Position numbers and translations under genes: made by a program. The notes beneath the pieces are model-generated. The model was not told the DNA's origin. It searched no databases and was given only the letters and a program-made list of their open reading frames with translations. Below, piece by piece: positions 523-16,025 of a stretch of 32,747 nt of DNA. Origin of the DNA: an uncultured Oscillospiraceae bacterium (lineage in GTDB: Bacteria > Bacillota > Clostridia > Christensenellales > CAG-314); NCBI GenBank assembly GCA_964474475.1, contig CAYYTD010000002.1:1-32747 (forward strand), read 5' to 3'. The first letter of the stretch is position 1. The number at the start of each line of letters is the position of its first letter.

Positions 523-552
523 TTGACAAAAAGGCAGGGGGGGGGGTATAAT
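523..552 (+). promoter_or_regulatory. Sigma-A-type promoter of the pilin gene: TTGACA, 18-nt spacer, TATAAT, with a G10 tract in the spacer
   Basis: TTGACA at 523-528 and TATAAT at 547-552. The spacer is AAAAGGCAGGGGGGGGGG, with the G run at 537-546. An A/T-rich UP-like stretch lies at 490-520. Confidence 0.7.
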
Positions 553-861: not shown

Positions 862-2610
862 ATGAACAACAGCAAAAAACGCGGCTTTACTATCGTAGAG
901 TTAGTAATAGTTATTGCCGTTATTGCAATTCTTGCAGGCGTGCTTATTCCCACCTTTTCAAGTGTTGTAAACAAGGCAAATCAAGCTAACGATACCGTTC
1001 TCATCAAGTCGCTCAATACCTCGCTCAAGTCTGCCGAGGCTCTCAACGGCAAAGCGCCCACCATGCACGACGCCTTGCAAATCGTCAAGGAAGACGGCTA
1101 CGACGTAAGTAAAATCAAGTCCACTGCCAGCGGCAGCCAAATTATGTGGGATAGCGCCAACAACTGCTTCGTGTACGTAAAAGAGGGTGTAATCAACTAC
1201 ATTCCCGATTCCAAAACGGTTACTGCACAAAACTACCAATTGTGGACTATTGTAGAATCTGGCGACCTCAGCACCGAATACAGCAACTACCTTGCAGATG
1301 GTTTTACGGCTACCGGCACTCTTGCAATTACCACCGGCTTGGACGTTGGCAATGTTGAAGGCATTACCGCAATAGAGTACGTGCGCACAAGCGGTTCTGC
1401 TCAAGAAGTAATCATTCGCACCAACTCATCTGCAACGACACTCACCATCAACGCAGCAACGGACACCGTTCATCACTACGGCGCAATTGCCAGCGTAAAC
1501 GTAATTGCCTGCGCACCGAGTTCCTACCACGAAAACGGTCAAGTTAAAGGCAATATTGTAGTGGAACAAGGCAGAGTAGAAGTTGCCGCAAACGCAACAG
1601 TAAGCGGCGCAGTTTTGGTAACCGGCAATAGCGTTAAAGTAGACGTAAAGAACGACACGACCAAAGTTAACGTTAAGTCTAGCGTTACTCTACCCGAAGG
1701 CTCTGTTTCCGGCGTTGAACCTATTAATGCTACTATCGTAACCGACGAAGCTACGTTGAAAGCAGCAGTTGCCTCCGGCGGCACGATTTATCTTGGTGAA
1801 GATATTGTTTACACGAATACGCTTGTCGCTGAAGGTGTTGATATCACATTGAATTTGAATGGTCATAATATTACTTCAACTAAATCGAATGTGGCATTTT
1901 TATCAATTAAAGGTCAGAATACAATGACCAATGTTGTCTTGGAAGGCAACGGAAGTGTTACTGGTTCCGCACAACAAGGTTTGTTGAAAATAAAAAACAC
2001 TAAGTCTCGCTTAACAATTAATGGCGGAGTGTATGAAAACACTTGGACTTCCAACGGTGGCGGATATGTCTTGCATCAAGGATACGAAAAAAACAAGACT
2101 GGCGGAAATGTTATTATCAATAACTGTGAAATGAAATCATATGATGCGACACTGTATTTGGGAAGAAAAGGTACACTTGAAGTAAATGGTGGTAAGTTTG
2201 AGGCGAAAAATAATTTCGTGATTGGTACTTTAGGGGATGCAAACTATGGATCAAACAAAATTATCATAAACGGCGGCACTTTCAATGGAAATATTGAGTC
2301 CACAGGATATATCGCTTGCGGCATCTACATTGCAAATAATGACACGCTTACAGTTAATGGTGGTACGTTCAATATTACCGATGGTGTAGGCATTCTTGTT
2401 CGTGCTGGAAGCGCAACAATCGGTAAGGGCGTTGTAGTTAATCTACTGAATTCCGGCAAGGGTATTACTGAAGGAATGATTGGTGACGTAAAAACCAAAA
2501 TAAGCCCTACGGCGGTTATCGTTGTAGATGCACTGGAAGATGCAACCCCCACCATCACCAACAACTCTGTATATGGCGTTTATGACTCTGATGGCAACGA
2601 AATTAAATAG
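862..2610 (+). CDS. Large modular type IV pilin (582 aa): prepilin class III signal plus a beta-rich stalk plus a beta-helix-like C-terminal module
   Basis: AAGGAG RBS at 846-851 and ATG at 862. The N-terminus MNNSKKRG|FTIVELVIVIAVIAILAGVLIP has the canonical G/F cleavage site, Glu5 and a hydrophobic helix. The C-terminal half carries four [IV]NGGx[FY] repeats (INGGVYEN, VNGGKFEA, INGGTFNG, VNGGTFNI), typical of right-handed parallel beta-helix coils. The track ORF start at 787 lacks an RBS. Confidence 0.85.
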   Translation: MNNSKKRGFTIVELVIVIAVIAILAGVLIPTFSSVVNKANQANDTVLIKSLNTSLKSAEALNGKAPTMHDALQIVKEDGYDVSKIKSTASGSQIMWDSANNCFVYVKEGVINYIPDSKTVTAQNYQLWTIVESGDLSTEYSNYLADGFTATGTLAITTGLDVGNVEGITAIEYVRTSGSAQEVIIRTNSSATTLTINAATDTVHHYGAIASVNVIACAPSSYHENGQVKGNIVVEQGRVEVAANATVSGAVLVTGNSVKVDVKNDTTKVNVKSSVTLPEGSVSGVEPINATIVTDEATLKAAVASGGTIYLGEDIVYTNTLVAEGVDITLNLNGHNITSTKSNVAFLSIKGQNTMTNVVLEGNGSVTGSAQQGLLKIKNTKSRLTINGGVYENTWTSNGGGYVLHQGYEKNKTGGNVIINNCEMKSYDATLYLGRKGTLEVNGGKFEAKNNFVIGTLGDANYGSNKIIINGGTFNGNIESTGYIACGIYIANNDTLTVNGGTFNITDGVGILVRAGSATIGKGVVVNLLNSGKGITEGMIGDVKTKISPTAVIVVDALEDATPTITNNSVYGVYDSDGNEIK

Positions 2611-2735
2611 CAAGATTTAATTTGCAATTTTTTTGTGCAAATAGTCGTAACGCAACGAATTCGTTCAATGGCGAATGGTTTCAATTTGACGGACTATTGC
2701 AAGTTGGCAAAGTTAATTCTCAATAATGGTCACGT

Positions 2736-2764
2736 CCGCTCGCCATTTCGGTGGGCGGATTTTT
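2736..2764 (+). terminator. Rho-independent terminator (near-duplicate of 338-365)
   Basis: CCGCTCGCC (2736-2744) pairs with GGTGGGCGG (2750-2758) as a 9-bp stem with two G-U pairs. ATTTTT follows. Confidence 0.65.
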
Positions 2765-2913
2765 CTACTCTTTTCAAATTAGCCTTATTACGTTTCACCT
2801 TGTCGTTTTTTTGTTTTAATGGTGTTGGCGTTTTCGTGTTTTTTGTTTCTATGTTGAACGGCGGGGTGCTGATTTGTTGGGTGCTTGTGCAAGGTGGGAG
2901 GAACGTCAGCAAA

Positions 2914-2937
2914 TTTCAATTTGCGGTTGTAAGGAAA
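2914..2937 (+). repeat. 24-bp conserved intergenic box, copy 2 (TTTCAATTTGCGGTTGTAAGGAAA)
   Basis: 22/24 identical to 386-409. TTGCGGT (2921-2927) can also pair with ACCGCAA (2942-2948). Confidence 0.6.
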
Positions 2938-2997
2938 TTTTACCGCAACGGTGGCGCTGTAAAATACAAATATGGTCAAATTGTATCAATTTGGCTG

Positions 2998-3026
2998 TTG
3001 ACAGAAACTATGCCGTGTGTTAAAAT
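2998..3026 (+). promoter_or_regulatory. Sigma-A-type promoter for the lipoprotein gene
   Basis: TTGACA at 2998-3003, 17-nt spacer, extended -10 TGtTAAAAT at 3018-3026. Confidence 0.6.
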
Positions 3027-3083
3027 GCATTCACAGTGATAAACGCGGCACACGCCGCCAATATTATAAGGGAGGATATCACA

Positions 3084-3527
3084 ATGAAAAAGACAGTAAG
3101 AATTTTTGCTCTTGTTGCGGCGTTGACTTTGTGCCTCGTTGCGCTTACCGCTTGTTCGGACAAGTACGGTGCACTTAAGAGCGCATTTGAAAAAGAAGGT
3201 TTCAAAGAAAACCAAGTTGTAGAAGGCGTTGCTGAACAAATTAAGCAAGACCTTGAAAAACAAGAACTTGAAGTTAACATTCACGTTCTCACCAAGGGCG
3301 TTGGCGCTGTTGCAATTATTGAGTTTACTGCAACCGAAGAATTGGCACAAGCCATCAAGGACAGCAACACTTTGCAAGGCTTTATTAAAGACGTGCAAGA
3401 AAGCGAAGATGCAAACGAATTTTACAACAAGCTTGTAGAAGCAGGCTATGCAAAAGGCAACTGCTTGTGCATTCCCCTCACCGTTAAGGCATCCACAATG
3501 ACGGAAATCGTAAAATCCGTAAAGTAA
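3084..3527 (+). CDS. Small lipoprotein of unknown function (147 aa)
   Basis: GGAGG RBS at 3071-3075 and ATG at 3084. Signal peptide MKKTVRIFALVAALTLCLVALTAC with lipobox LTAC. It has its own promoter and terminator. Confidence 0.8.
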   Translation: MKKTVRIFALVAALTLCLVALTACSDKYGALKSAFEKEGFKENQVVEGVAEQIKQDLEKQELEVNIHVLTKGVGAVAIIEFTATEELAQAIKDSNTLQGFIKDVQESEDANEFYNKLVEAGYAKGNCLCIPLTVKASTMTEIVKSVK

Positions 3528-3539
3528 TTAACCACAACA

Positions 3540-3575
3540 AAGAACCGCAAGGAAACGCCCTTGCGGTTCTTTTTG
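3540..3575 (+). terminator. Rho-independent terminator
   Basis: GAACCGCAAGG (3542-3552) pairs with CCTTGCGGTTC (3559-3569) as a perfect 11-bp stem. A T5 run follows. Confidence 0.85.
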
Positions 3576-3609
3576 CTATTTGCAATAGTGCAATTTGTCA
3601 CCACGCTTC

Positions 3610-3656
3610 GCCAACAAATTGCATTAAGCTTTGCCAACAAATTTTGCCAACAAATT
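3610..3656 (+). repeat. Three direct copies of GCCAACAAATT
   Basis: Copies at 3610-3620, 3633-3643 and 3646-3656. The first and third extend to GCCAACAAATTGCATT. The third overlaps the -35 element. Confidence 0.8.
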
Positions 3657-3683
3657 GCATTTTGTATTTGTATATGGTATAAT
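3655..3683 (+). promoter_or_regulatory. Promoter of the minor-pilin/assembly operon
   Basis: TTGCAT at 3655-3660, 17-nt spacer, extended -10 TGgTATAAT at 3675-3683. Confidence 0.55.
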
Positions 3684-3807
3684 TAACTATTATATGTGTG
3701 TACGTGTACCCTTTTGGCGCATTTTGCTGCCAAAAGCAAACGGTTGGCTTTGCCATTTCCCTTTTGAAGACAAAAGCCTACGCACAAATTTGCAAGGAGG
3801 AAAGGCT

Positions 3808-4335
3808 GTGCGAAAGAAACGTAGCGGAGTGACGCTGTTGGAAATTACCATAGTTATGGCGGTTACTGCAATAGTGGTTACCGGCGTGGTGTCCTTGTGC
3901 GTTTCGGTGCAGGGCGTTGCCGCACGAACCAACGAAGTTACCGATGCCATTGCATCTCTTACCGACGTGCGCGACATGGCAACTAAGTGGATTGCCCACT
4001 TTGACGGTTTGCCGGGTGCAACAGTTACTGCCCTTGCAGATAGTGCCGAAAGCGGCGAACCATCGGAGGAAAGCAACAAAACGATACTTCGTGCCACGGT
4101 GGAAGGGAACAATTACGACTTCTACTTGGACAAATCTGCAAAAAAATTTGTTGCCCAGTACGAAGGCAAAACGCTTTACGCCAATGCCAACACAGTCATC
4201 TTTTTGGGCTTCGACTGCCGCACGAGCGACAACTTGATTGTGTGCAGCGTAACTTACACCCTTACCAAAAGCAATGGCAAGCTTAGCGTAGAAGAAACGA
4301 GCTTTGTAATTGCCGCAAGAGGAGGCACACAATGA
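3808..4335 (+). CDS. Type IV minor pilin / pseudopilin (175 aa)
   Basis: GTG start at 3808, preceded by AAGGAGG at 3794-3800. N-terminus VRKKRSG|VTLLEITIVMAVTAIVV has the prepilin cleavage motif with Glu5. The upstream part of track ORF 3631.. has no RBS. Confidence 0.8.
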   Translation: MRKKRSGVTLLEITIVMAVTAIVVTGVVSLCVSVQGVAARTNEVTDAIASLTDVRDMATKWIAHFDGLPGATVTALADSAESGEPSEESNKTILRATVEGNNYDFYLDKSAKKFVAQYEGKTLYANANTVIFLGFDCRTSDNLIVCSVTYTLTKSNGKLSVEETSFVIAARGGTQ

Positions 4336-4715
4336 AAAGGCGCGGTGTAACTCTTGTTGAAACGGTAATAGCGATGTTTTTGATAACGGTGCTTACGGCA
4401 GGCGCCTTTACGCTGTGTTCTACTGCGGTGGTGCGTGTAGACCGTGTTGAAAAGCAATTTAGGGCACAATCGGCATGCAAGGACGTGATTGAATGCTACA
4501 AGGTGACGGAAAGCGTTTCGACAGAACTTGAAAACAAATTGAAGATAGTTAACTCCAACGCAAAATTGGCGGAAAGCGGCTACGTACTGACCTACGCCGA
4601 CTTTAACGTGGTGGCATCGTTAAGCGAAGACAAACACACTCTGACGGTGGTTGCCACCGATTTTAGCGGTGACGAGCTGTGCAAAACTTCCTATTTTAAG
4701 GGAGGTGCGGCATGA
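4332..4715 (+). CDS. Type IV minor pilin / pseudopilin (127 aa)
   Basis: N-terminus MKRRG|VTLVETVIAMFLITVL. ATGA start/stop overlap with the upstream gene. Confidence 0.8.
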   Translation: MKRRGVTLVETVIAMFLITVLTAGAFTLCSTAVVRVDRVEKQFRAQSACKDVIECYKVTESVSTELENKLKIVNSNAKLAESGYVLTYADFNVVASLSEDKHTLTVVATDFSGDELCKTSYFKGGAA

Positions 4716-5218
4716 CGAAACTACGCGGCAAGCGCGGAATGGCAATGATGATGGTCATCGTTGCAATGGTAATTCTCAGCTCATTTGGCGTGCTTATTAC
4801 CACTTGCGCAGTCAAAATGCATTCGGACGTTGCGCGGTACGTAAAAAACACCGAAAATTGCGACGCCATGGGCGAATACTTTTTGAGCAAGGCAAATAGT
4901 CTTACAGATTTTTCCAACGAAACGAGCGTGGTTGCCAATTTGAAATCGGCATTTTCAAGCAATGCGGCCGATAACCCCTTTGCGGAATACGGCGTTAACC
5001 CCGCAGCGAATGCCGAGGGGGAATTTCCTGTAAAACGGGCGCAGATAAGTGCAAAATGCGATGGTGGCTCAACCGCAGTTATGTTAAACGTCTATGCGGC
5101 GGATTCGGTAAAACTTCAGGTTGTGGCACGCAAAAGCGGCACGGAAAAATTTACAATTTTAGTTTGGAGTTACGACGAGGTCGTAACGGATATTGAAACC
5201 GTCACGTTGCCGAGTTGA
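4712..5218 (+). CDS. Pilin-like protein lacking Glu5 (PilX/GspK/ComGG-like, 168 aa)
   Basis: N-terminus MTKLRGKRG|MAMMMVIVAMVILSSFGVL. ATGA overlap with the upstream gene. Confidence 0.65.
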   Translation: MTKLRGKRGMAMMMVIVAMVILSSFGVLITTCAVKMHSDVARYVKNTENCDAMGEYFLSKANSLTDFSNETSVVANLKSAFSSNAADNPFAEYGVNPAANAEGEFPVKRAQISAKCDGGSTAVMLNVYAADSVKLQVVARKSGTEKFTILVWSYDEVVTDIETVTLPS

Positions 5219-5240
5219 CGGACGGTTTGGAGGAAAAAGG

Positions 5241-6482
5241 ATGGCATTAGTACCCGAAAAAAGAAATACGGTGATAGGCATCGATGCGCAAAGTTCGTCC
5301 ATAGTGTTTTTTACCATGACGGGGGATAACCGCATTACTGCGCAATTGAAAAAAGTTCCGTTTAAGGGCACCTTGTACGATGAAAGCTTTTACGACACTT
5401 TGGCTACGGAAATTGCCGAGTATCTAAAGCAAAACCCCGTGCGCCAGCCCACGTCTTTTGCTGTGGTGGTTACGGATAACGCCGTAATTACGGACACCTT
5501 TGCCGTGCCGTCGATAGGCAGGAAGGGCATGGAACAGGCGTTTAAGATGGCTGTGGAAAACATGTACGTAAACGCATCCGACTTGGAAATTAACAAGGTT
5601 TTGGCATATTCCAACCGTCAAAGCGCAACCTATTCCGTAACGATGATGCAAAAAAACGTAATTGCGGGCATCACGCGTGCTTTTAACGCAAACAAAATAT
5701 CCCCGCAGTTTATTACTTTTCCGTACAACGGACAAGCCAACGCGGTTACCAAGTTGCGCCCCAAGTTCAAGAGGTCCTCTTACCTGTTTGCCGACGTCAA
5801 GGAGGGCTACACGCGCCTTTGCTTCATCGTAAAGGGACGTGCCGTTGGCGGAACTGTGTTGCCCTTTGGCTACGAAATACTAAGCAACAAACGCGTTGTT
5901 GCCGAAGACATGCTTTTCGACCATTCTTTGGGAGAGATTACCGTTCTTAATGCCCATGAAAAGGCAAAGGACAAGGCAATGACCGTCTTCCACGAAGACG
6001 CCCAAGGCGATGAGGACGAATTGCAAACGGCCGAGACGGAACAGGAAGAAAACGTATTTGCCGACTTTGAAGATGAAGAGGGTGTGCAGCAAGAGGGCGC
6101 CAACACGGTGCTGTTGCAACAGCAGGCAGGCAAGGCGTATCGCAAAACCGCCCGTAAGCTTCCCAAATTTATGATTAAACCTACGCCGACGGACGAGCAG
6201 GGCTTCACCTACGAAAATTTTTGCATCATTGCCAAGTGGATTTTGCTGTATTTGCGTGGCAACGAAAGCATCACTTCCCAAGGCGAGCCGGAGTTCGTGT
6301 TGGTAAACGTTCCTCACAGGTTTGAATATTTGTTTGAAATGATCAATCGTCACAAGGAAGAAAACGGAATTGAATTCGTTTCTTTCGATCCGGCAATAGA
6401 AGACAGCGCCGACGTAACCTCTAACCTTGAGTTTTTTGGCGGTTTCTATAGCAAAAAGGTCAACCCGACCAACTTATTTTAG
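5241..6482 (+). CDS. pilM: PilM-like actin-fold pilus assembly protein with an acidic insertion (413 aa)
   Basis: GGAGG RBS at 5229-5233 and ATG at 5241. VIGIDAQSSSIV resembles the PilM phosphate-1 motif, and ADVKEGYTRLCFIVKGRAVGG resembles the second nucleotide-binding motif. It sits where PilM is expected in the operon. An acidic stretch lies at ~5991-6100. Confidence 0.6.
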   Translation: MALVPEKRNTVIGIDAQSSSIVFFTMTGDNRITAQLKKVPFKGTLYDESFYDTLATEIAEYLKQNPVRQPTSFAVVVTDNAVITDTFAVPSIGRKGMEQAFKMAVENMYVNASDLEINKVLAYSNRQSATYSVTMMQKNVIAGITRAFNANKISPQFITFPYNGQANAVTKLRPKFKRSSYLFADVKEGYTRLCFIVKGRAVGGTVLPFGYEILSNKRVVAEDMLFDHSLGEITVLNAHEKAKDKAMTVFHEDAQGDEDELQTAETEQEENVFADFEDEEGVQQEGANTVLLQQQAGKAYRKTARKLPKFMIKPTPTDEQGFTYENFCIIAKWILLYLRGNESITSQGEPEFVLVNVPHRFEYLFEMINRHKEENGIEFVSFDPAIEDSADVTSNLEFFGGFYSKKVNPTNLF

Positions 6483-6484
6483 TT

Positions 6485-7276
6485 ATGTTTGAAGTAATTG
6501 TAACTTACGTAATGTGCGGCTTGTTGGGCTTGTGCGTGGGTAGCTTTCTCAACGTGGTTATTTACCGAGTTCCCAACGGAATGAGCTTGGCAAAGCCCTC
6601 CTCTCACTGCCCCAACTGCGGATACGTACTCAAATGGTACGACAATATTCCCGTGTTGTCTTACCTTATTCTTGGTGGCAAATGCCGTGGATGCAAACAG
6701 CACATATCCTTTAGGTACACTTTGGTAGAGCTGCTCAACACTGCGTTGTGGCTGTTGTGCGCGTGGCAATTCGGCTCAAATATTTTCTACTTGATAGTCG
6801 CTTGCCTGTTTTGCTCGGTGCTAATTTGCGTGACCTTTATCGACATCGAACATCAGTACATTTACGACGTGTTTCAGTGGATTTTGCTTGCGCTGGCAGT
6901 GTGCGCCCTGTTTGCCGATTGGAACGGCATTGTGTGGTGGCACAGGTTGATAGGCGGAGGAGTCGGTTTTGCCTTTTTCTTCATCTTTTACGGTGTTGCG
7001 TACTTAATTTACAAGCAAGAGGCAATGGGCTTTGGCGATGTGTTGCTTGCCGGGGTTTGCGGCTTGTTTTTGGGCTGGAAGAACTTCATCGTTTCGGTGA
7101 TAGTGGCAAGCTTGGTAGGCAGCGTAACTTTGCTTGTGTTGAGAGCAAAGCGTAAAGACGACAAAAAAACGGAGTATCCCTTTGCTCCCTTTATTGCTTT
7201 GGGGGCGGCAGTCGCTTTGTTTTTTGGTGATTATATAGTCAGTGCATATACTTCTTTAATCGGCTTGGGCGCGTAA
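6485..7276 (+). CDS. pilD: Prepilin peptidase (A24 family)
   Basis: GSFLNVVIYRVP, CPNCG...CRGC, WYDNIPVLSYL and GFGDV aspartyl-protease motifs. Multiple TM segments. Confidence 0.95.
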   Translation: MFEVIVTYVMCGLLGLCVGSFLNVVIYRVPNGMSLAKPSSHCPNCGYVLKWYDNIPVLSYLILGGKCRGCKQHISFRYTLVELLNTALWLLCAWQFGSNIFYLIVACLFCSVLICVTFIDIEHQYIYDVFQWILLALAVCALFADWNGIVWWHRLIGGGVGFAFFFIFYGVAYLIYKQEAMGFGDVLLAGVCGLFLGWKNFIVSVIVASLVGSVTLLVLRAKRKDDKKTEYPFAPFIALGAAVALFFGDYIVSAYTSLIGLGA

Positions 7277-7319
7277 TTTTGCTTGAGCAAACTATTTAAT
7301 TTTAGCAGAGGATGTTATT

Positions 7320-8561
7320 ATGCCAAAGTACAAATATACGGCGGTAAACGTCAAAAAAGAAAAGTTTACAGGCACTTTCATTGCCGAGAACGAACAAGAT
7401 TTGTCCGAACAGCTTGCCAAGCAAAGTCTGTACTTGGTTTCTTGTTCCATCTATTCCGACAAAACGCCCTCTTCGTTTTGGACGCTTGGTTCGGGAAAGG
7501 TGTCTTACGAAGAACTTGCGGCTTTTTGCCGCCAGTTTGCAACCATGCTTAACGCAGGCATAACCATAATAGACAGCTTGGAAAGCCTAATTCAGCAACC
7601 CTTTTCTTCCTTTTTCAAGAAGATAATGGAGCGCGTGTACGAAGACGTCCGTTCGGGCAAGATGCTTGCCGAGGCGGTAGATACGCACAAAAAGGTGTTC
7701 CCCAATTTCTTCCGCAGCATGCTGTACATAGGCGAAGAAAGCGGCAAGTTGGAACAGGTGCTTTTGTCGCTGGCGGATTATTACGAGCGCGATTGCAAGC
7801 TGAAAAAGCAAGTAAAGTCGGCAATGGCGTATCCCATCATGTTGGGCGTTTTGCTCATAGGCATCATTGCCTTAATGATGTTGTTCGTGGTGCCCACATT
7901 CCGCAGCGCCATGGGCAAGATGGATGTTGAGGTTACCGGTTTGACTGCCGTAGTGTACGACATGAGTGACTTTTTCCTTTCCGAATGGCGCACCATCGTG
8001 CTGGTGCTTTTCGTCGTCGTTGGCGGATTGTTGCTTTTTGGCTTGACCAAGAAAGGAAAGTACTTTTACTCTATGCTAAAGGTAAAATTGCCTCTCATCG
8101 GTCCCGTAACTACGGATATGATAACGGCTCGGTTTGCACGCGGATTTGCCTTGTTAATTTCCAGCGGTATGGATGCCGTTGAGGCGTTGAAGGTAATCAA
8201 CGTAGTGTTGGACAATCCCTATATTGAAAAGAAGTTTGCCAATGCGGTTGATTGCGTTTGTCAGGGTATGAGCCTTACCGAGGCGTTCAAGCAACAAAAA
8301 ATGTTTCCCGATATGCTTATCCAAATGATAAGCGTCGGCGAAAAAACCGCCGGCTTGGAACAGGTTTTGAATAGGTCCTTCAACTACTTTGACGACAAAG
8401 CCGAGCGCGCGCTAACTAGTGTTGCGGCAAAAATCCAACCCATCATGATTATCATCATGGGCGTGGTTGTAGGTGCCATGTTCTTGGCAGTATACTCTCC
8501 CATGTTGGACATAATGAACAACATCGGCAACGTTGGCAGTTACGATGTGCCAAACGTGTAG
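7320..8561 (+). CDS. pilC: Type IV pilus platform protein (GspF/PilC family)
   Basis: GAGGA RBS. The T2SS-F repeat signature (ELAAFCRQFATMLNAGITIIDSLESL) is duplicated later as FARGFALLISSGMDAVEAL. Three TM segments. Confidence 0.92.
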   Translation: MPKYKYTAVNVKKEKFTGTFIAENEQDLSEQLAKQSLYLVSCSIYSDKTPSSFWTLGSGKVSYEELAAFCRQFATMLNAGITIIDSLESLIQQPFSSFFKKIMERVYEDVRSGKMLAEAVDTHKKVFPNFFRSMLYIGEESGKLEQVLLSLADYYERDCKLKKQVKSAMAYPIMLGVLLIGIIALMMLFVVPTFRSAMGKMDVEVTGLTAVVYDMSDFFLSEWRTIVLVLFVVVGGLLLFGLTKKGKYFYSMLKVKLPLIGPVTTDMITARFARGFALLISSGMDAVEALKVINVVLDNPYIEKKFANAVDCVCQGMSLTEAFKQQKMFPDMLIQMISVGEKTAGLEQVLNRSFNYFDDKAERALTSVAAKIQPIMIIIMGVVVGAMFLAVYSPMLDIMNNIGNVGSYDVPNV

Positions 8562-8631
8562 TATTGCAGTACAACAAGCAGTTTTTTAACAAACAAAGTT
8601 CTTTGCACGTAGCAAAAGGAATACATTCCAT

Positions 8632-10323
8632 ATGAATTTGAATTACGAATTATTGTTGTTTTTCGTTTATAGAAAAATAATTAAACGTAAAGACGTAGAG
8701 CCTATTATGGCGGCATGCAAAAAGCTTCAATTACCCGTTGAAACTTACCTGATTGCCAAAGAGTATTGTACCGAAGTTACCGCGCTCGAGGCAATGGCGG
8801 ATTTCTACTGCATGCCCTGTTGCGAATTGGACATGCTCGACATCGACGAGGATTTGTTTGCGCAGTTCGGCTACGATTTCATGAAAAAGCACAAGGTCAT
8901 TCCCGTTTGTCGCAACAAGAAGGGAGTGTTGTTGCTTGCCGTGGCACGTCCGCTCGATTGCAACGCCGTGTCGGCAATCAATTCCCGCTTTACTTGCCCG
9001 TTGGATTTCGTCCTTGTGCCGGCAGTTCAAATAGACAGGCACATCGACTCCATCGTTGCGGTAATTTCCACCTCAACCGCTCTTGACGACCTCAATGCTG
9101 AAAAGGACAAGGAACTGGCAAAGGCAAACAACGCTGGCGACTTTAACGGCGTTGGCAAGGAAGACGACGTAATTAACACTTCCGCAGTGCGCTTGGTCGA
9201 TTCTATCATTCGTGAGGCAATTCCCTACCGCGCAAGCGACATTCACATTGAGCCCTTCGAAAAGGTAGTTAAAGTGCGTTACCGCATCGACGGCGATTTG
9301 CAACCGCGTGCGGAGTTCCCCATCGAAAGTTACGCTGCAATTTGCGCGCGTATTAAAATAATTTCCGGCATCAACATTGCTGAACGCCGCGTTCCGCAAG
9401 ACGGCCGTATCAACATGATCATCGGCGACAAGGAATACGACTTCCGCGTGTCGTCGTTGCCCACCGTTTACGGCGAAAAGTTCGTTATTCGTATTTTGGA
9501 CAAAACTTCCTTCAACTTTACTCGTGCCGACCTTGGCTTTACCGACAGGGAAAACGCCATTGTCGATAAGATTTTGGAGCGTCCTCACGGCATAGTGCTG
9601 CTTACCGGCCCCACCGGTTGCGGAAAGAGCACTACGTTGTACTCCTTCTTGAAGGAAATCAACAAGCCCAACGTAAATATAGTTACGGTTGAAGATCCCG
9701 TGGAATACACCCTGTTTGGAGTAAACCAAACTCAGGTTAACACCAAGGCAAATATGACCTTTGCTTCCGCCCTTCGCTCCATTTTGCGTCAAGACCCTGA
9801 TATTATCATGATAGGCGAAATTCGTGACGAAGAAACGGCGCAAATAGCCATTAGAGCGGCAATTACCGGGCACTTGGTATTTTCTACGTTGCACACCAAC
9901 GACGCTCCCGGCGCAATAGTGCGTTTGGAAGACATGGGCGTAGAAGATTACCTCGTATCCGATGCGTTGGTTGGCGTTATTGCCCAACGTTTGGTCAAGC
10001 GTTTGTGCCCTGCATGCAAAAAGAAGGGCAAAACCACCGCCAAGGAAATGGAATTGCTCGGCATAAAAGAGCCTGTGACGATTTATCGTCCGCAAGGCTG
10101 TCAGTTCTGCAACGAAACGGGCTACAAAGGCCGTATTGCCGTTCACGAAATAATGCATCTCAACGACGAGATGAGACAAGTAATATCCAAAGAAAAGACT
10201 ATTGAAGGATTGAGAAACATCGCTTTACAAAACGGCATGCACACCCTGTGGGATTCCTGCAAGGAGTACGTGTTGGCAGGGGTAACCAGCCTGCAAGAAT
10301 TGGTCTCCCTTTCCGTCGAGTAA
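8632..10323 (+). CDS. pilB: Type IV pilus assembly ATPase (GspE/PilB family)
   Basis: Walker A GPTGCGKST, Asp/His boxes, and tetracysteine CPACKK...CQFCNETGYKGR. N-terminal T2SSE_N-like region. The start could instead be Met26 (8707). Confidence 0.93.
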   Translation: MNLNYELLLFFVYRKIIKRKDVEPIMAACKKLQLPVETYLIAKEYCTEVTALEAMADFYCMPCCELDMLDIDEDLFAQFGYDFMKKHKVIPVCRNKKGVLLLAVARPLDCNAVSAINSRFTCPLDFVLVPAVQIDRHIDSIVAVISTSTALDDLNAEKDKELAKANNAGDFNGVGKEDDVINTSAVRLVDSIIREAIPYRASDIHIEPFEKVVKVRYRIDGDLQPRAEFPIESYAAICARIKIISGINIAERRVPQDGRINMIIGDKEYDFRVSSLPTVYGEKFVIRILDKTSFNFTRADLGFTDRENAIVDKILERPHGIVLLTGPTGCGKSTTLYSFLKEINKPNVNIVTVEDPVEYTLFGVNQTQVNTKANMTFASALRSILRQDPDIIMIGEIRDEETAQIAIRAAITGHLVFSTLHTNDAPGAIVRLEDMGVEDYLVSDALVGVIAQRLVKRLCPACKKKGKTTAKEMELLGIKEPVTIYRPQGCQFCNETGYKGRIAVHEIMHLNDEMRQVISKEKTIEGLRNIALQNGMHTLWDSCKEYVLAGVTSLQELVSLSVE

Positions 10324-10397
10324 CGGAAAAATTTTGGCGGCATTTGCCGCAACCCCCTTTTGGTTGTTAGTTTTCAAGCGAGTACGGAGAAAAATCA

Positions 10398-13148
10398 ATG
10401 GCGTATCAACATTTTTATTCAAGAGTGCCTTCCAAAGTAAGCATGTTCAACAAAGCCGACGGGTTTGATACCTTTGCTTCGTCGTCAATTTTTTCGCGCA
10501 GTTACGTCGACGACGAGCTTGTCCCCGTGCTTAACTATGCCCCCGGCAAGTACGAGGCGTCTTACATTCGCACGGGCAGTTTGCCTCCCGTTTACTGGCG
10601 TTACGTGGGCAGTCAAAGGCAGGTTGTCGTTAGTTGTGTCAGCTTTATGCCTCGTGATTACACCGGTGAGCGTAGCAGCTGGCTAATTCACACCCTCGTG
10701 CCCAACGACGACGAACGCGCCTCAATCAGCCGCGCAACGGACAGGCAAATTATCAATCCCGAATGTTTTACTACGGACATTTCCGGCTTCAAAATCACTT
10801 ACGCCAACGCGTCCCCGATAAAGGATTACCCCGAATTGGCTTATTCGCCTTTGCGCGTTACGGACGTAGAGCAGTTAACTACTCAGTATTCCTCCTCGCA
10901 ATTAAAAAAGTTAATTTACGCTTTGCTTGCCGTTGCTTGTGGCAAGTGCAAGGCGGTTTACATAGGCGCCGGCAAAGATATGCAAACCATTTCGCAAGAG
11001 GCGCTTGCGTTGATGAACAGGCTTTTGCAGGTATTTCCGCACAACGTGCGGGACAGAATACCCTTCATCACTTACACGACGGAGTACAACAAGCTAAATA
11101 CTTTTGCCGTCAAGTTTTTGCCTTCCGATTGCATGACCATGCCGCCAAGCAAAGGCATTCGTTTCGATTTGCCGTCGAAGGAATCGGACGGCATCAAAGA
11201 GGCGGATTTTGCCTCTGCGCAAATGCTTGTAGAGTTCTTTTACAGTTTGCTTGCGGACAAGCCTTTGCGCCTGCGTTTCGTCAAGTACGCTTTGAGAGCG
11301 GCCGAAACGGACAAAACGCTGCAGGAACCCAACTTTAAAAATCTCAACGCCATCGTTACACTTTTCAAGCAGGTATCCAAGGCGTATACCGAAAAGCAAG
11401 TTTTGCCCGACGATGCACGCGTGTTGGAAATGTTTTCCATTTACGAAAAGTATCGCAACATACTTTCGCCAAAGGAAAGATGCACCGTGTACGGAAGTTT
11501 GGAAAGGTACATTAGGTTGCACCAAGCCATTCCGTCGGCAGTCTTCACCAAGGTGAGCAAGCTGTACCCCAAGGAAACGCCTCACGTCAAGTCGTGTGTT
11601 ATGCGCATAATGCTAGAGATGATTCACACAGACATAATGCGCGACAAGCTTTTTGCATTCATCAAGAACAATTTCGATGCCGAAAACGCCCGCGGCAAAT
11701 CCATTATTTGTCGCCACCTCATTAGGGTTTATTACGGCGGATTTTTGCAACATCAAATTCTTTCTTTGCTGGATGGCTGCTTTGCCGAACAGTCGGAGGG
11801 AACGCAGGATTTCGTTTTGGAAAAACTGTTGTTGTCCATTCGCACGCAGGACGTTCGTTTACAGCTATTTGAATTTTTTGAAAATCAATACGGTGTATTT
11901 ACCGAAGAACAAAAGAAAACACTGTACAAAACGTTGCTGTCGTCGTTAGACGAAGCGGACGAATTGAGCGTTGCCGTGGTGCAATTTGTCGACAAGCACG
12001 TTGGCAAAGAGCCCAAGGAAGTATCGCAGTTGGTCGCCGACCAAATAGTGAGTATTTTGGATGCCGAGTGCCGCCGCGAAAACGAATTGATCAAAGTGCT
12101 GTCGGCAAGCAATGGTTTTTGTCTAAACGCCGTCTTGCCTTCTGTCCTTTCGTGGACTTCTCGCAAGGTTTTTGCCAAGTACGTCGACATAGTGTCTTCC
12201 GCCAACGTTGCAAAGGCAACGGAAATGCTGTGCAACTGTTTCGTTGCTGTGCCTTCTCCGTCGGCAGAGGCAGTTAGTGGTTTGAACAGGGCGGTTGATG
12301 CTCTTGCTGGCAAGCAACCTACAGTGGACTTTTTCCGCCTTGCCGATGCCTACTCCAAGGTGAAAAGGTTTGTTTCGGCAAAATCTAACAGCGTGTGGAA
12401 CAAGCTTGCCGATAGGCTTGCCACCGACGTGTTGCAAGTTGCGCTTTGCTCTCGCGTGCTGGATTGTTTTTGCATCAAACCGCAAGTTGGTTACGTAGAA
12501 AAAGCCAGCAAATTTATTGCCGCTAACGAATTTTTACAAAGTGAACCTCTTTCGCAAGCCGTTTGCGCGGCCAAATGTGTTTTGGACGGCGAATTGCCCT
12601 CCGCCAACATGAAAGGTCTGTGCAAGTTGCTCGGCTACAAGCGTGAGCGCGAAAGCTTCGTGCAGTGTCTCGAAGAGATTCTTGCCGATAGCAAAAACAA
12701 AATTTCGGCAGATAAGGACGTGGAGTATCTCGTTGACGTTTGTGCGCTGGTTTCTTTGCTTGGCAAGGGAAGTTTCAACTGGGAGGACGTTTATCGCCTT
12801 TGCTTTGCCGGAACGCAACGCAAATACGAAATTGCCTTCAAAGAGGATGCCAAAAAGCTTGCAAATGCGGCAAAGTATGCTTCGGTAGATGCGCTTGTTC
12901 AAGTGCTTCGCTGCTGTGCGCGTATGCGTGCATCCGATGCTCCGCAGCAGGTTCGCAACGTGGTTATCGGCAACGACAATAATTCGCTGTCCACGCTCGT
13001 CGCAAAATACACTTCTTCCTACGGCAAAGGCATTCTCAAAGAGGTTGCCGATATTTGCGTGGACGTTGCCGACGACGAAGTTATGGCAATCGTCAAGCCT
13101 GCCAAAACGGGAATTTCGGCCTTCTTTGAAAAGCTGTTTAAAAAGTAA
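10398..13148 (+). CDS. Large cytoplasmic protein of unknown function (916 aa): ~250-aa alpha/beta N-domain plus ~650-aa helical region
   Basis: GGAGA RBS at 10386-10390 and ATG at 10398, 75 nt after pilB on the same strand. No TM segment, no P-loop, and no family motif I can name. Confidence 0.75.
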   Translation: MAYQHFYSRVPSKVSMFNKADGFDTFASSSIFSRSYVDDELVPVLNYAPGKYEASYIRTGSLPPVYWRYVGSQRQVVVSCVSFMPRDYTGERSSWLIHTLVPNDDERASISRATDRQIINPECFTTDISGFKITYANASPIKDYPELAYSPLRVTDVEQLTTQYSSSQLKKLIYALLAVACGKCKAVYIGAGKDMQTISQEALALMNRLLQVFPHNVRDRIPFITYTTEYNKLNTFAVKFLPSDCMTMPPSKGIRFDLPSKESDGIKEADFASAQMLVEFFYSLLADKPLRLRFVKYALRAAETDKTLQEPNFKNLNAIVTLFKQVSKAYTEKQVLPDDARVLEMFSIYEKYRNILSPKERCTVYGSLERYIRLHQAIPSAVFTKVSKLYPKETPHVKSCVMRIMLEMIHTDIMRDKLFAFIKNNFDAENARGKSIICRHLIRVYYGGFLQHQILSLLDGCFAEQSEGTQDFVLEKLLLSIRTQDVRLQLFEFFENQYGVFTEEQKKTLYKTLLSSLDEADELSVAVVQFVDKHVGKEPKEVSQLVADQIVSILDAECRRENELIKVLSASNGFCLNAVLPSVLSWTSRKVFAKYVDIVSSANVAKATEMLCNCFVAVPSPSAEAVSGLNRAVDALAGKQPTVDFFRLADAYSKVKRFVSAKSNSVWNKLADRLATDVLQVALCSRVLDCFCIKPQVGYVEKASKFIAANEFLQSEPLSQAVCAAKCVLDGELPSANMKGLCKLLGYKRERESFVQCLEEILADSKNKISADKDVEYLVDVCALVSLLGKGSFNWEDVYRLCFAGTQRKYEIAFKEDAKKLANAAKYASVDALVQVLRCCARMRASDAPQQVRNVVIGNDNNSLSTLVAKYTSSYGKGILKEVADICVDVADDEVMAIVKPAKTGISAFFEKLFKK

Positions 13149-13324
13149 TAAATAACGAGCGCACAATACGCAAAACAAAGCAATGGTTGCAAGCGGCTCA
13201 AAGCATTGCCCGTTTGTTTAATGTTTAGGGACGTGTGCTTCTGCGCTTGTAAACTCAATGTGCGTATTAAAAAGTGTTGTGAATAGTTAACAATTTGCCG
13301 TAGAGTCATTACGGTAGAGTACAG

Positions 13325-13361
13325 AAAATCCCCTCGGAAAGAGTTTTTCCGAGGGGATTTT
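13325..13361. terminator. Bidirectional intrinsic terminator between convergent genes
   Basis: AAAATCCCCTCGGAAA (13325-13340) pairs with TTTCCGAGGGGATTTT (13346-13361) as a perfect 16-bp stem flanked by A/T runs. Confidence 0.85.
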
Positions 13362-13429
13362 GGTTGTACAAAATCTCGTTTGAACTTTGTCGTATTTAAT
13401 TTTGACGGGTGTTAATCGACAACATCGTT

Positions 13430-14338
13430 TTAGGCCTTGTCAAAGCGCTTGTCCTTGCCGTTAAGCTTGGCAACGAAGGTTTGCTTTTGGTCAATCAGCC
13501 TCGAGAATACTCGTTCGTCGTATTTTTCTCGTAATTGCGCAAGGCTCAGGTTGGTAGAAATAAACGTTTGCTTGCCTGCCGTCATACGCTCGTTGAGCAA
13601 AATAAAGGTGTATTCGGCAGTTACGTTTTTGTAGGTTTTTTCGGTGCCGAGGTCGTCTATTACAAGCACATCAACGTCCGTCAGGTTGTCTAACACGAGT
13701 TTTTTAGTTTGCAAATCGCCAAGATAGCATTCCAAAAACAAGTTGTTAAGTTTGTAAGCGGTAACGAACAATACGCTTTGGTTTTGCTTTGCGCATCTGT
13801 TTGCGCAGGAACACAGCAAGTAGGTTTTGCCCGTGCCGGTGGGGCCAAGCAACAAAAAGTTTTTCAAATGCTTTTCGTCGCACAGGCGCTTTGCCATTTT
13901 GTAAATTTTCACGTTTTCCGGTTGGTTTTCCGTCGATGCTTCAAAGGAACAGTTTTCAAGCGGAATGTTGCTTTGCGACAGAATTATGCTCCGCATTTCT
14001 TCAAGCAAACAGCTGCACGCCTTGCCGTCAACGTAGCCCGTGTCGTTGCATTTTGCGCAGGAATAGTGCGGCTCAAGGTCGCCTGCCGAAACGTGGTACT
14101 TTGCAAGTAACTCGTTGTATTTTGTCGTGGCTTGTTCAAGCTCGGCTTTAGCTTGTTGCATTTGTTCGTCTGTGCCAAGGGCAAGTTTCACCATGGCTTG
14201 TCGCCTAACCTTTTCGCATTCGGCAAAGTCGGCGTGGGAACGTAACGCTTCAAGCGTTTTTTCGCACTTTTCTTCGGCAAGATAGCGGCGACAGTCAATT
14301 TCTCTTTTAGATAGCTCTATCAGTTGAGATTTGTTCAT
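13430..14338 (-). CDS. dnaI: DnaI/DnaC-type helicase loader ATPase
   Basis: Walker A GPTGTGKT, Walker B VLVIDDLG, N-terminal Zn motif CAKCNDTGY...CSC. TAATG overlap with the upstream gene. Confidence 0.85.
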   Translation of the reverse strand: MNKSQLIELSKREIDCRRYLAEEKCEKTLEALRSHADFAECEKVRRQAMVKLALGTDEQMQQAKAELEQATTKYNELLAKYHVSAGDLEPHYSCAKCNDTGYVDGKACSCLLEEMRSIILSQSNIPLENCSFEASTENQPENVKIYKMAKRLCDEKHLKNFLLLGPTGTGKTYLLCSCANRCAKQNQSVLFVTAYKLNNLFLECYLGDLQTKKLVLDNLTDVDVLVIDDLGTEKTYKNVTAEYTFILLNERMTAGKQTFISTNLSLAQLREKYDERVFSRLIDQKQTFVAKLNGKDKRFDKA

Positions 14339-15792
14339 TATTCCTCCGCATCGTCTAACGACGTAAACAGCGCATTAAGCTGATCTTCGGTGTATTCTCT
14401 TCGTTCAATGTCCATTCCGCCAACGTATGCGGTTGTTGCCGCTGCCTGCTTGGCTGCACTTTCGTGCGGGGTGTTCTTGGCTTGTTCTACGGAGCAAATT
14501 CCCTTTTGCTTGTAGTCGGACAAAACCCTGTTCACGTACGCCATGGGCGATGTGGTTCCCGATGCTTTTTGAGATGCAAAATATATCAGTTCTTCGGGCA
14601 TTTGCCAATTTTGAGTCCAGGTTTTGTACAGGTTTCTGTCCGAAGGCGTAACCTTTCTTTCCAAACCGCAACAGTTAAGCACTTTCAGTATTTTTTCGTC
14701 CGTTCGCGTAACGGTTTGCAAGTATTCGTCCAAGGCGGCAAGCGTGGTTACGCCGTTTTTGTATAGTTTACTTATCACCGACGACATGCCTGCAAGCGTG
14801 CGAATGCCGCTGCGGAAGCAATATTTGGCTATGGCAAGGATGGTTTCGTCATCAAATCCCTTGCGAAGCCAATCGGTAAGATATTCGTCCACTACGGCGT
14901 CAAGGCTTTGGTAGTACACGCCGATGGCTTTGTTTACGCTGCGTGCCAATTCGTACAAACGGTTTTTTTCGTTTTCGTAAAAGTCAATTTCTTTTACGGA
15001 CAACGCACCCTTTTTGTAGTATTCGCACAGGCGCGAATCCAGCTTGTTCATTCCGCCCGACTTGGTCTTTTTGGCTACGGCGGTTATTACGTCTTGGGTA
15101 AAGCCAAAGTCTTTGGTCCATTTTTCGTAACGTTCGCGGTCTTCGTATTCAAATTTTCTGTTTAACGCCAGCGCCTTGAAGAGAATTTTAAGGTCGTCGT
15201 CGTATTTTTGTTGGCTGTTCAGGTTGTCTTGAACGGTTGCCAGAGTGGTGGCGCCTTTCGTTAGTTGATTTCTTGCAACGGTTAGTATGTACCTGTAGTT
15301 AATGGACGTCCCTTTCAGTTCGGCACAGTACTTTGCCACGGCAACTAACGCATCCGGTTCAAATGTGGTATTTTCCAAAAAGGTGTAATACTCGTTGTAT
15401 TCGTTGGGGGTAATCATTCTTCCCTCCAACACCTGTTGAATGTCTTTGCTGAATTTTGCGTACTTGGAGGGTTTGATTTTTTTTAATGCCGATGCGGAGT
15501 TTCTCATGGCAAGGTACACCACACAAGGGGGATTGTCCCCGGTGAGATGCACGAGGCCAAGTTCTTCCCAATATAAAAAGGCGTCCAGCACGTCTTGTTC
15601 GCTTATGCCCAACTTGTTTGCGATGGTGGCGCAGCCGTTGTCGGCACCGTTGCTGTCGCAAAGTACAAGCCCAAGCAAATAAACCGCACTGCGCACGTCG
15701 GGCGCATCGGGCAGATAGTTGATTATAAATTTGTTTTCAACGCTTGTAACGCCGTTTTCAACAAGTTGTTTTTCTTTGTCGCAAAATTTCAT
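14338..15792 (-). CDS. DnaD-domain replication initiation/helicase-loading protein (Bacillus DnaB-like, not the helicase)
   Basis: 484 aa with repeated DnaB_2/DnaD-like segments (LGISEQDVLDAFLYWEELGLVHL; later helix-rich repeats). GAGGG RBS. Coupled to dnaI. Confidence 0.75.
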   Translation of the reverse strand: MKFCDKEKQLVENGVTSVENKFIINYLPDAPDVRSAVYLLGLVLCDSNGADNGCATIANKLGISEQDVLDAFLYWEELGLVHLTGDNPPCVVYLAMRNSASALKKIKPSKYAKFSKDIQQVLEGRMITPNEYNEYYTFLENTTFEPDALVAVAKYCAELKGTSINYRYILTVARNQLTKGATTLATVQDNLNSQQKYDDDLKILFKALALNRKFEYEDRERYEKWTKDFGFTQDVITAVAKKTKSGGMNKLDSRLCEYYKKGALSVKEIDFYENEKNRLYELARSVNKAIGVYYQSLDAVVDEYLTDWLRKGFDDETILAIAKYCFRSGIRTLAGMSSVISKLYKNGVTTLAALDEYLQTVTRTDEKILKVLNCCGLERKVTPSDRNLYKTWTQNWQMPEELIYFASQKASGTTSPMAYVNRVLSDYKQKGICSVEQAKNTPHESAAKQAAATTAYVGGMDIERREYTEDQLNALFTSLDDAEE

Positions 15793-15819
15793 TATTTCCC
15801 TCGTTTTTTGCGGAAAGTC

Positions 15820-15848
15820 TTGCTAATTTTGAACCCATAGTTTATAAT
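15820..15848 (+). promoter_or_regulatory. Candidate promoter for the coiled-coil gene
   Basis: TTGCTA at 15820-15825, 17-nt spacer, TATAAT at 15843-15848. This implies a ~170-nt leader. Confidence 0.35.
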
Positions 15849-16025
15849 ATAAGTTAATATAAGCGGTTGCTTTGCCGTCGTGTTAAACGATATTCGTTGC
15901 GGTTGTCAACCTTCGTAGGCGCAAGTCGATTTTTCGTTAATATCGTCTGCGATAAATTTTAACACAAAAACACGACCTTTTCAACAGATTTATTAGAACT
16001 TGGTAAAATATTCAATGAGGAAACT

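Follow-up and report, generated by a model that had tools for sequence, protein, structure and literature searches.

A probable new monoderm type IV pilus machine from uncultured Clostridia with a candidate GAP1-family partner

Genes and predicted transcription units of the locus

The subject of this analysis is a type IV filament (T4F) locus on contig CAYYTD010000002.1 of an uncultured Oscillospiraceae bacterium; the whole stretch of DNA analysed, 32.7 kb (32,747 nucleotides, nt), is referred to below as the window. Listing and translation of open reading frames (ORFs) place nine co-oriented ORFs on the + strand at 862-13148, as stated in the initial annotation. The four universal core functions of T4F machines are all present, namely prepilins, the peptidase PilD, the platform protein PilC and a PilB/GspE-type ATPase. 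They are accompanied by a divergent PilM-like protein and by a terminal protein of 916 amino acids (aa) that we assign to the GAP1 family on its sequence. We regard the eight-gene unit at 3808-13148 as the conserved machine. The genes are as follows (the slash in the prepilin signals marks the processing point).

862..2610, + strand: modular pilin, 582 aa; KRG/FTIVELVIVIAVIAILAGVLIPTF (KRG/FTIVE); N_methyl 29.7 bits; pilin module of ~105 aa followed by a beta-rich variable C-terminal domain
3084..3527, + strand: lipoprotein, 147 aa, with an LTAC lipobox
3808..4335, + strand: minor pilin, 175 aa; GTG start; SG/VTLLE with E5 present; N_methyl 26.2 bits
4332..4715, + strand: minor pilin, 127 aa; RG/VTLVE with E5 present; N_methyl 26.3 bits; homologues in relatives
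4712..5218, + strand: pilin-like protein, 168 aa; degenerate class III signal KRG/MAMMM without E5 (GspK/ComGG-style)
5241..6482, + strand: PilM-like protein, 413 aa; actin-like fold by model; disordered acidic insert at residues 225-311
6485..7276, + strand: PilD, prepilin peptidase/N-methyltransferase; A24_N_bact 125.8 bits, Peptidase_A24 63.9 bits
7320..8561, + strand: PilC, platform protein; T2SSF 200.7 bits; a single two-domain protein
8632..10323, + strand: PilB, extension ATPase; T2SSE 456.5 bits plus an N-terminal MshEN-type domain; CPAC...CQFC tetracysteine motif
10398..13148, + strand: GAP1-family cytoplasmic protein, 916 aa; GAP1-N2 at 1-~110, GAP1-M at ~165-265, alpha-solenoid at 270-900

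Pfam and NCBIfam matches, together with the sequences themselves, bear out the identities initially given to the modular pilin, the lipoprotein, the three minor pilins and PilD, PilC and PilB. Besides the prepilin peptidase, the locus encodes pilins with class III signal peptides and E5, three of which match N_methyl. The ATGA overlaps described between the minor-pilin genes are present in the sequence at 4332 and 4712 and join all three of them. Nevertheless, every NCBIfam equivalog cut-off was missed by the pilus proteins of the window. For PilB the bit scores (cut-offs in parentheses) were 568.6 (675.65) against PilB, 567.3 (630.25) against GspE, 273.5 (300) against ComGA and 45.2 (373.15) against the TadA family; for PilC they were 301.9 (424) against GspF, 255.4 (700) against PilC and 149.9 (240) against ComGB. 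Residues 3-106 of the modular pilin resemble PilA/GspG. The GspG model scored 36 bits (cut-off 89) and the ComGC model 24.2 (cut-off 75). Among sequences of the PDB, Myxococcus xanthus PilB, Thermus PilF and Vibrio GspE are equally near to the window PilB (380-390 bits), while BfpD and PilT score ~120 bits.

A domain search of all window ORFs of 120 aa or longer detected no PilN, PilO, second T2SSE ATPase or secretin domain, in agreement with the initial annotation, and no GspL, GspM, GspC or GspD domain. In the ten related loci introduced below, neither PilN nor PilO domains nor a second T2SSE gene (PilT) were found within 10 kb of the locus on either side; pilT is often unlinked. The 168-aa pilin-like protein was considered as a candidate PilN and ruled out, as both this protein and its positional equivalents have degenerate signals of the prepilin type (KRG/MAM, KG/AAIE, KG/LGIE) in place of the cytoplasmic PilN motif.

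Promoters and terminators were sought by consensus scans, and the extended -10 element of the machine operon was read off the sequence by eye. These signals are listed below.

523..552, + strand: predicted sigma-70 promoter of the modular pilin gene, TTGACA-18-TATAAT, 12/12 match to consensus
2734..2760, + strand: terminator-like hairpin after the modular pilin gene, 11-bp stem with 7 GC pairs, then a T-run; a hairpin resembling it at 338-358
2998..3026, + strand: predicted lipoprotein promoter, 11/12 match plus TG extension
3539-3572: strong predicted terminator after the lipoprotein gene, from the consensus scan
3655..3683, + strand: putative extended -10 promoter of the operon from the minor pilins to the 916-aa protein; TTGCAT at 3655-3660, 14 nt, TGg-TATAAT at 3675-3683; hexamers 17 nt apart
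13325..13361, bidirectional: terminator-like hairpin closing the operon, AAAATCCCCTCGGAAA...TTTCCGAGGGGATTTT, common to the convergent DnaI-like gene

The consensus scan did not pick up the extended -10 promoter because its -35 hexamer matches at only 3/6 positions. Instead of the single operon of nine genes originally proposed, separate predicted promoter and terminator sets surround the modular pilin and lipoprotein genes, pointing to three transcription units: the modular pilin, the lipoprotein and the eight-gene machine. The modular pilin transcript would have a 309-nt leader (553-861), which is not conserved in related loci. A riboswitch was looked for in this leader; it gave no Rfam match at the gathering threshold or at E <= 1, and it folds only mildly better than shuffled sequences (z = -2.0).

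Conservation of the machine and exchange of the large pilins

We compared the window with ten related metagenomic loci (L001, L002 and L004-L011; eleven loci in all), each covered with 10 kb on either side. Seven (L001, L002 and L004-L008) were retrieved via the 916-aa protein, whereas three (L009-L011) were found independently via PilB. An outgroup locus from Acetoanaerobium noterae (L012), outside the ten relatives, came from a tblastn search of a plasmid collection; its record (NZ_CP154629.1) is filed as a 2.6-Mb 'plasmid', although it is chromosome-sized, and is almost unannotated in PLSDB. A scan of genome contigs returned one locus.

The order pilins, PilM-like protein, PilD, PilC, PilB recurs in 10/10 related loci, apart from L004, which has no PilD within the locus, and the flanks are unrelated. 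The conserved core consists of three minor pilins, PilM, PilD (with the same exception), PilC, PilB and a gene for a protein of ~910 aa. Identity to the window proteins is 70-92% for PilB, 52-86% for PilC, 47-76% for PilD, 33-60% for PilM, 32-63% for the GAP1-like protein and 21-48% for the minor pilins. The view that the layout is distinct from the Com, Tad, type II secretion system (T2SS) and canonical clostridial type IVa pilus (T4aP) arrangements is upheld, with order and content recurring throughout the relatives. Of the two genes whose conservation with the locus had been in question, that of the 916-aa protein is kept in 10/11 loci, but that of the lipoprotein has a homologue only in L006 (68% identity), where it likewise lies ahead of the minor pilins. 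The lipoprotein is probably a lineage-specific passenger outside the pilus machine.

The best 120 PilB homologues among 5.8 billion proteins are all 559-565 aa long and at least 69% identical to the window protein, and for this reason the PilB clade appears from sequence to be both tight and populous. The nearest annotated clostridial PilB reached, that of A. noterae, is 47% identical, against at least 70% within the family of the window protein. Carriers are common in uncultured gut and rumen Clostridia, with hundreds of clusters at 90% identity; the few that are named are metagenome-assembled genomes of Oscillospiraceae, Clostridiales or Clostridia.

Same-position homologues of the 175-aa minor pilin occur in L006, L002 and L001. 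Positional equivalents of the 168-aa pilin-like protein, found in L002, L004, L005 and L006, have KG/AA.. or KG/LGIE signals. In L010 a Flg_new-domain protein of 221 aa occupies this third, E5-less position (6045-6710), which implies that accessory domains are grafted onto minor subunits too.

The modular pilin behaves differently from the machine genes. Its conservation in relatives is confined to the first ~105-110 residues (36-51% identity), and the C-terminal 300-1450 residues of the large pilins are unrelated between loci, except for one weak match to L007. In the window protein 477 aa follow the pilin module and have no Pfam match. They include five repeats of the form [LIV]x[LIV]N[GN][GC], starting at residues 387-499 and spaced by 22-33 residues, and the L007 homologue has a sub-threshold match to Pfam Beta_helix. 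Judged from these sequence features, the C-terminal domain fits a beta-helix adhesin or an enzyme-like domain. The initial annotation had left the choice between an adhesive fibre and a secretion pseudopilus; variable C-terminal domains grafted onto pilins favour adhesion.

A short pilin of 119-251 aa is encoded in nine loci (L001, L002, L004, L005 and L007-L011) and is lacking from the window. Where compared, the first ~40-55 residues of the short pilins are 65-78% identical to those of the window modular pilin. Modular and short pilins with a common GFTIVELVIVIAVI N-terminus are found together in L001, L002, L004 and L007-L011, and L010 carries two large pilins. In L005 the short pilin lies beside the locus, and a 1572-aa pilin with the same ~105-aa module (12838-17556) is located downstream of the GAP1-like gene rather than upstream of the minor pilins. 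L006, the closest relative and the one sharing its downstream flank with the window, carries no large pilin and no short one. Because its machinery is intact even so, the major pilin of the organism studied here is probably encoded elsewhere in its genome.

The modular pilin is thus better seen as an exchangeable accessory subunit than as the defining one of the system: it is absent from L006 and elsewhere is mostly paired with a short pilin of the same N-terminus. Its gene is flanked on both sides by a terminator-like hairpin and an element of 49 nt (76% identity), at 337-365/384-432 and 2736-2764/2912-2960. These repeats suggest that the gene is a cassette acquired by insertion or exchange, a view to which its own predicted promoter and terminator, its absence from L006 and the pairing with short pilins in relatives also contribute.

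The remaining genes of the window are of housekeeping type and include those for DnaI-like and DnaB-like proteins, YqeY, an M1 peptidase and an Opp-type ABC transporter. A separate observation concerns a 1053-aa, mostly coiled-coil protein without a Pfam family (16026-19187, + strand), adjoining divergent genes for a DnaB_2-domain protein and the DnaI-like protein. L006 repeats this coiled-coil/DnaB_2/DnaI-like arrangement, with a 1049-aa protein.

The PilM-like and GAP1-family proteins

The 413-aa protein encoded between the minor pilins and PilD has no match in Pfam or NCBIfam, nor among PDB sequences when a five-sequence profile is used, and the Pfam PilM domain is found in 0/36 of its database homologues. 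It is conserved in all ten related loci and no transmembrane (TM) segment is predicted. Its AlphaFold model, computed with 34 sequences, has a mean predicted local distance difference test score (pLDDT) of 78 and consists of two well-folded halves on either side of the disordered insert. When this model is compared with known structures using Foldseek, PilM of P. aeruginosa, T. thermophilus and M. xanthus rank first (5eq6, 2ych, 3jc8; E = 2e-14 to 4e-12), and FtsA and the cytoplasmic domain of GspL rank below them. The model thus identifies the protein as a PilM recognisable by fold only; the identity originally proposed is right at that level. Across the family, two stretches do not vary: the motif R305-x-LPKFM-x4-P316, located where the disordered insert ends, and NLE..G..N..N.F in the C-terminal tail (residues 395-413). 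From their conservation they may be docking peptides, either of which could substitute for the missing N-terminus of PilN.

The terminal 916-aa protein had been annotated as a large cytoplasmic orphan. The first part of this description stands, since the protein has no TM segment. The second does not, because its homologues number in the hundreds and it scores slightly over the cut-off of 24 against both GAP1-N2 (PF20013, 29.4 bits) and GAP1-M (PF20014, 24.8 bits) in Pfam. Of the 120 homologues listed for it, nearly all have a precomputed PF20013 assignment and many have PF20014. Searching 1.84 billion representative sequences with a 66-member family profile retrieved ~65 full-length clusters (at 50% identity), and then proteins of 600-1100 aa matching at profile positions 1-330 only (E = 1e-25 to 1e-33). 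All eight such partial matches that were scanned are canonical GAP1 proteins, with GAP1-N2 at 120-154 bits and GAP1-M at 60-104 bits. In a joint alignment, the pilus-linked and canonical groups have in common the invariant residues Q4, R9, D24, D87, T89, R92, H98, P214, R218 and F294. Sequence comparison thus indicates that the 916-aa protein belongs to the GAP1 family through its first ~330 residues. The aligned canonical proteins end in a C-terminal TM helix, whereas none is present here.

In the AlphaFold model of the 916-aa protein (pLDDT 90), two alpha/beta domains (residues 1-112 and ~160-265) precede an alpha-solenoid that extends from 270 to ~900. As modelled, the strand and helix order of residues 1-112, beta-beta-alpha-beta-beta-beta-alpha, recalls longin/roadblock domains. 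A Foldseek search with the full model returned only generic HEAT/ARM solenoids with TM-scores (template modelling scores) below 0.25, and a profile of the N-terminal 335 residues gave no match to PDB sequences.

The GAP1-like gene lies directly 3' of PilB in 10/11 loci, the window included, with a gap of 10-115 nt in the nine relatives concerned. The exception is L009 (10001-12600), where a PilB 70% identical to that of the window is followed by a gene for a 265-aa DUF2927 protein and no GAP1-like sequence is present within 10 kb. Kaur et al. (2020, eLife; PMC7159879) described GAP1, "GTPase-associated protein 1", as the partner of a double-GTPase in predicted conflict systems; its gene is typically located downstream of that of its nucleoside triphosphatase (NTPase) partner, with which it co-evolves. 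According to the same study, the pair of DO-GTPase and GAP1 has 'no close relatives elsewhere', and pili go unmentioned there. Likewise, no GAP1-type component is mentioned in the T4F literature examined. We found no adjacent DO-GTPase (TRAFAC double-GTPase) in any of the neighbourhoods, the upstream gene being PilB in all ten loci with a GAP1-like gene; the Pfam lists of the neighbourhoods contained no FNIII, tubulin, HSP70, kinase or effector modules, and PADLOC gave no match.

Interpretation and comparison with known systems

Taken together, these results are best explained, with fair probability, by a distinct monoderm type IV pilus machine that is conserved among uncultured Clostridia and would work with a GAP1-family partner. 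We place it as a new variant within the T4aP/T2SS-related branch, separate from Com, T2SS, Tad, canonical T4aP and GAP1-N2 conflict systems, and the pilus is probably adhesive. In the scenario we propose, PilD would cleave and methylate the pilins, and a priming or tip complex would consist of the three small ones, of which two are translationally coupled. A PilB hexamer on PilC would polymerise the short major pilin, which is linked to the locus in most relatives and presumably unlinked here. The 582-aa modular pilin, separately transcribed and exchangeable, could be incorporated at the tip or in low abundance and would display its beta-helix-like adhesin. PilM, without a PilN anchor, and the GAP1-family protein may associate on the motor as a soluble sub-complex in the cytoplasm. 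This sub-complex is proposed because the order of an NTPase gene followed by a GAP1 gene is conserved as in canonical systems and because the GAP1-N2/M residues are invariant in both contexts. The GAP1-N2/M module might dock on the PilB NTPase and/or PilM and serve as a switch or scaffold gating or localising assembly, with the variable half of the solenoid taking lineage-specific inputs; as a cofactor of the PilB motor, its function is one that we infer. If the pilus retracts, it would do so independently of a motor, as Com pili do.

Several points weigh against this interpretation. The PilB homologues listed are all in-family (at least 69% identity) and so give no clade boundary. Genes for PilN, PilO, PilT and a short major pilin may be present outside the 32.7 kb covered here and the 10-kb flanks covered in relatives. 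The machine of L009, lacking a GAP1-like gene, may mean that the protein is dispensable or encoded elsewhere, and the link of the GAP1-like protein to PilB or PilM is drawn from gene order alone. The promoters and terminators are consensus matches, and the beta-helix nature of the modular pilin is deduced from its repeats and one weak Pfam match in a relative. In addition, all carriers seen are uncultured and function is read from synteny.

Three other readings need to be considered. The GAP1-family gene could be a stand-alone conflict or defence gene merely adjoining the pilus operon, with no part in pilus biology: the family is described only from predicted conflict systems (PMC7159879), L009 has a pilus locus without it, and a small hairpin and a weak promoter-like site separate it from PilB. 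We regard this as hardly probable, given that adjacency to PilB persists in 10/11 loci despite changing flanks and divergence of the GAP1-like protein to 32% identity, that none of the expected DO-GTPase, FNIII, tubulin, HSP70 or kinase partners accompanies it and PADLOC is silent, and that the pilus-linked proteins form a tight subfamily of their own (the ~65 clusters above) with a distinct TM-less solenoid. With the GTPase, FNIII and effector features all missing from the neighbourhoods covered, the locus is not a GAP1-N2 conflict system.

A functional counterpart of the Com pilus in this clostridial group, taking up DNA in natural transformation, would likewise be a minimal machine without PilN, PilO and PilT, would have small minor pilins including one without E5 (ComGG-like), and could account for the weak NCBIfam matches to ComGE and ComGC. 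It is nonetheless unlikely: ComGA, ComGB and ComGC all fall below their equivalog cut-offs, ComGA has no counterpart of the long PilB/GspE N-terminus seen in the window ATPase, the genes run in the opposite order to comGA-GG, PilM is present, and none of the eleven neighbourhoods contains a comEA, comEC, comF or dprA gene. Large variable domains on pilins point to adhesion instead (PMC8179133). A T2SS-like endopilus, pushing the beta-helix protein or neighbouring surface proteins through the Gram-positive wall, seems very improbable. GspL, GspM, GspC and GspD are absent from the window and all Gsp scores, including those for GspE, GspF and GspG, stay under their cut-offs, even though GspF is the best-scoring model for PilC and the GspE and PilB models score about the same for the ATPase. 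Several loci do have large surface proteins (Big_2, LRR, Flg_new) at their flanks, but these proteins are not conserved between loci, and the large proteins of the locus itself bear genuine class III signal peptides, which makes them filament subunits rather than substrates. Membership of the Tad/type IVc group is contradicted by the TadA-family score and by a platform that is a single protein, not split into TadB and TadC.

Returning to the monoderm pilus with a GAP1-family partner, a bolder extension is that GAP1-N2/M is a general NTPase-coupled regulator, not a conflict-system component confined to GTPases, that was recruited to PilB and, with a PilN-independent PilM, replaces the PilN/PilO sub-complex. 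We offer this tentatively and consider it somewhat unlikely; if true, it would add a further class of bacterial T4F machine, with a purely cytoplasmic accessory complex, and provide a first functional handle on the GAP1 family. In any case, since the GAP1-family protein stands beside a non-GTPase motor, piliation would offer a tractable read-out for a family without experimental data. Attachment to host or substrate is a candidate role for the exchangeable adhesin-pilins.

Compared with GAP1-N2 conflict systems, the 916-aa protein has the same invariant GAP1-N2/GAP1-M residues and a gene directly downstream of one for a P-loop NTPase, but that NTPase is the PilB secretion ATPase rather than a TRAFAC double-GTPase, the FNIII/tubulin/HSP70/kinase/effector modules are lacking, and an alpha-solenoid of ~640 aa replaces the C-terminal TM segment. 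In their proposed mode of action alone, SgmX/MglA of Myxococcus and FimX/PilZ of Pseudomonas and Xanthomonas are comparable: large and soluble, they consist of repeats or act as switch modules, and they stimulate PilB or direct its localisation (PMC11656802). No sequence relationship of the GAP1-like protein to the SgmX and FimX cofactors was found, nor any TPR, PilZ, GGDEF or EAL domain in Pfam.

The modular pilins of S. sanguinis, PilB and PilC, are likewise built from a pilin module and an unrelated C-terminal domain exchanged between lineages (Raynaud et al. 2021, PMC8179133; Shahin et al. 2023, PMC9934059). In the loci studied here, however, the grafts are 300-1450 aa long, beta-helix-like and without a Pfam match, the ~105-aa pilin module is a conserved family, and the window gene is a separate transcription unit without a linked short major pilin. 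A 504-aa modular pilin with a vWA domain, like S. sanguinis PilB, is encoded in the A. noterae locus (14234-15748).

A further likeness is to monoderm T4aP of the C. perfringens, C. difficile and S. sanguinis type, which likewise possess an ATPase of the PilB/GspE type, carrying an N-terminal domain and a tetracysteine motif, PilC, a bifunctional PilD, an actin-fold PilM, short-leader pilins with E5 and modular pilins with grafted domains (PMC10191384). The locus and its surroundings differ from canonical T4aP in lacking PilN, PilO and PilT, in a PilM that is unrecognisable by sequence and has a disordered acidic insert, in the added GAP1-family gene, and in the order pilins-pilM-pilD-pilC-pilB against the canonical pilB-pilT-pilC-pilin...pilMNO. 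The A. noterae locus, which stands for canonical clostridial T4aP in this comparison, is arranged as pilB-pilT-pilC-pilin...vWA-pilin...pilM, with a PilM recognised by Pfam (PilM_2). Denise et al. (PMC6668835) found the monoderm T4aP clades to be polyphyletic and many 'generic' systems to be unassigned. The Com pilus (ComGA-GG with ComC) is similar as a minimal monoderm machine without PilN, PilO, PilP and PilT and with one major and several minor pilins, but it has neither PilM nor a GAP1-like protein. Among the six bacterial T4F classes recognised in PMC10191384, T4aP need PilM, PilN and PilO, and Com is the sole machine made of core components alone. The machine described here would thus represent a design between T4aP and Com, with the core and PilM, without PilN and PilO, and with a new conserved cytoplasmic component, and it bears on the role of the non-core membrane-complex proteins, a question raised in that same work.

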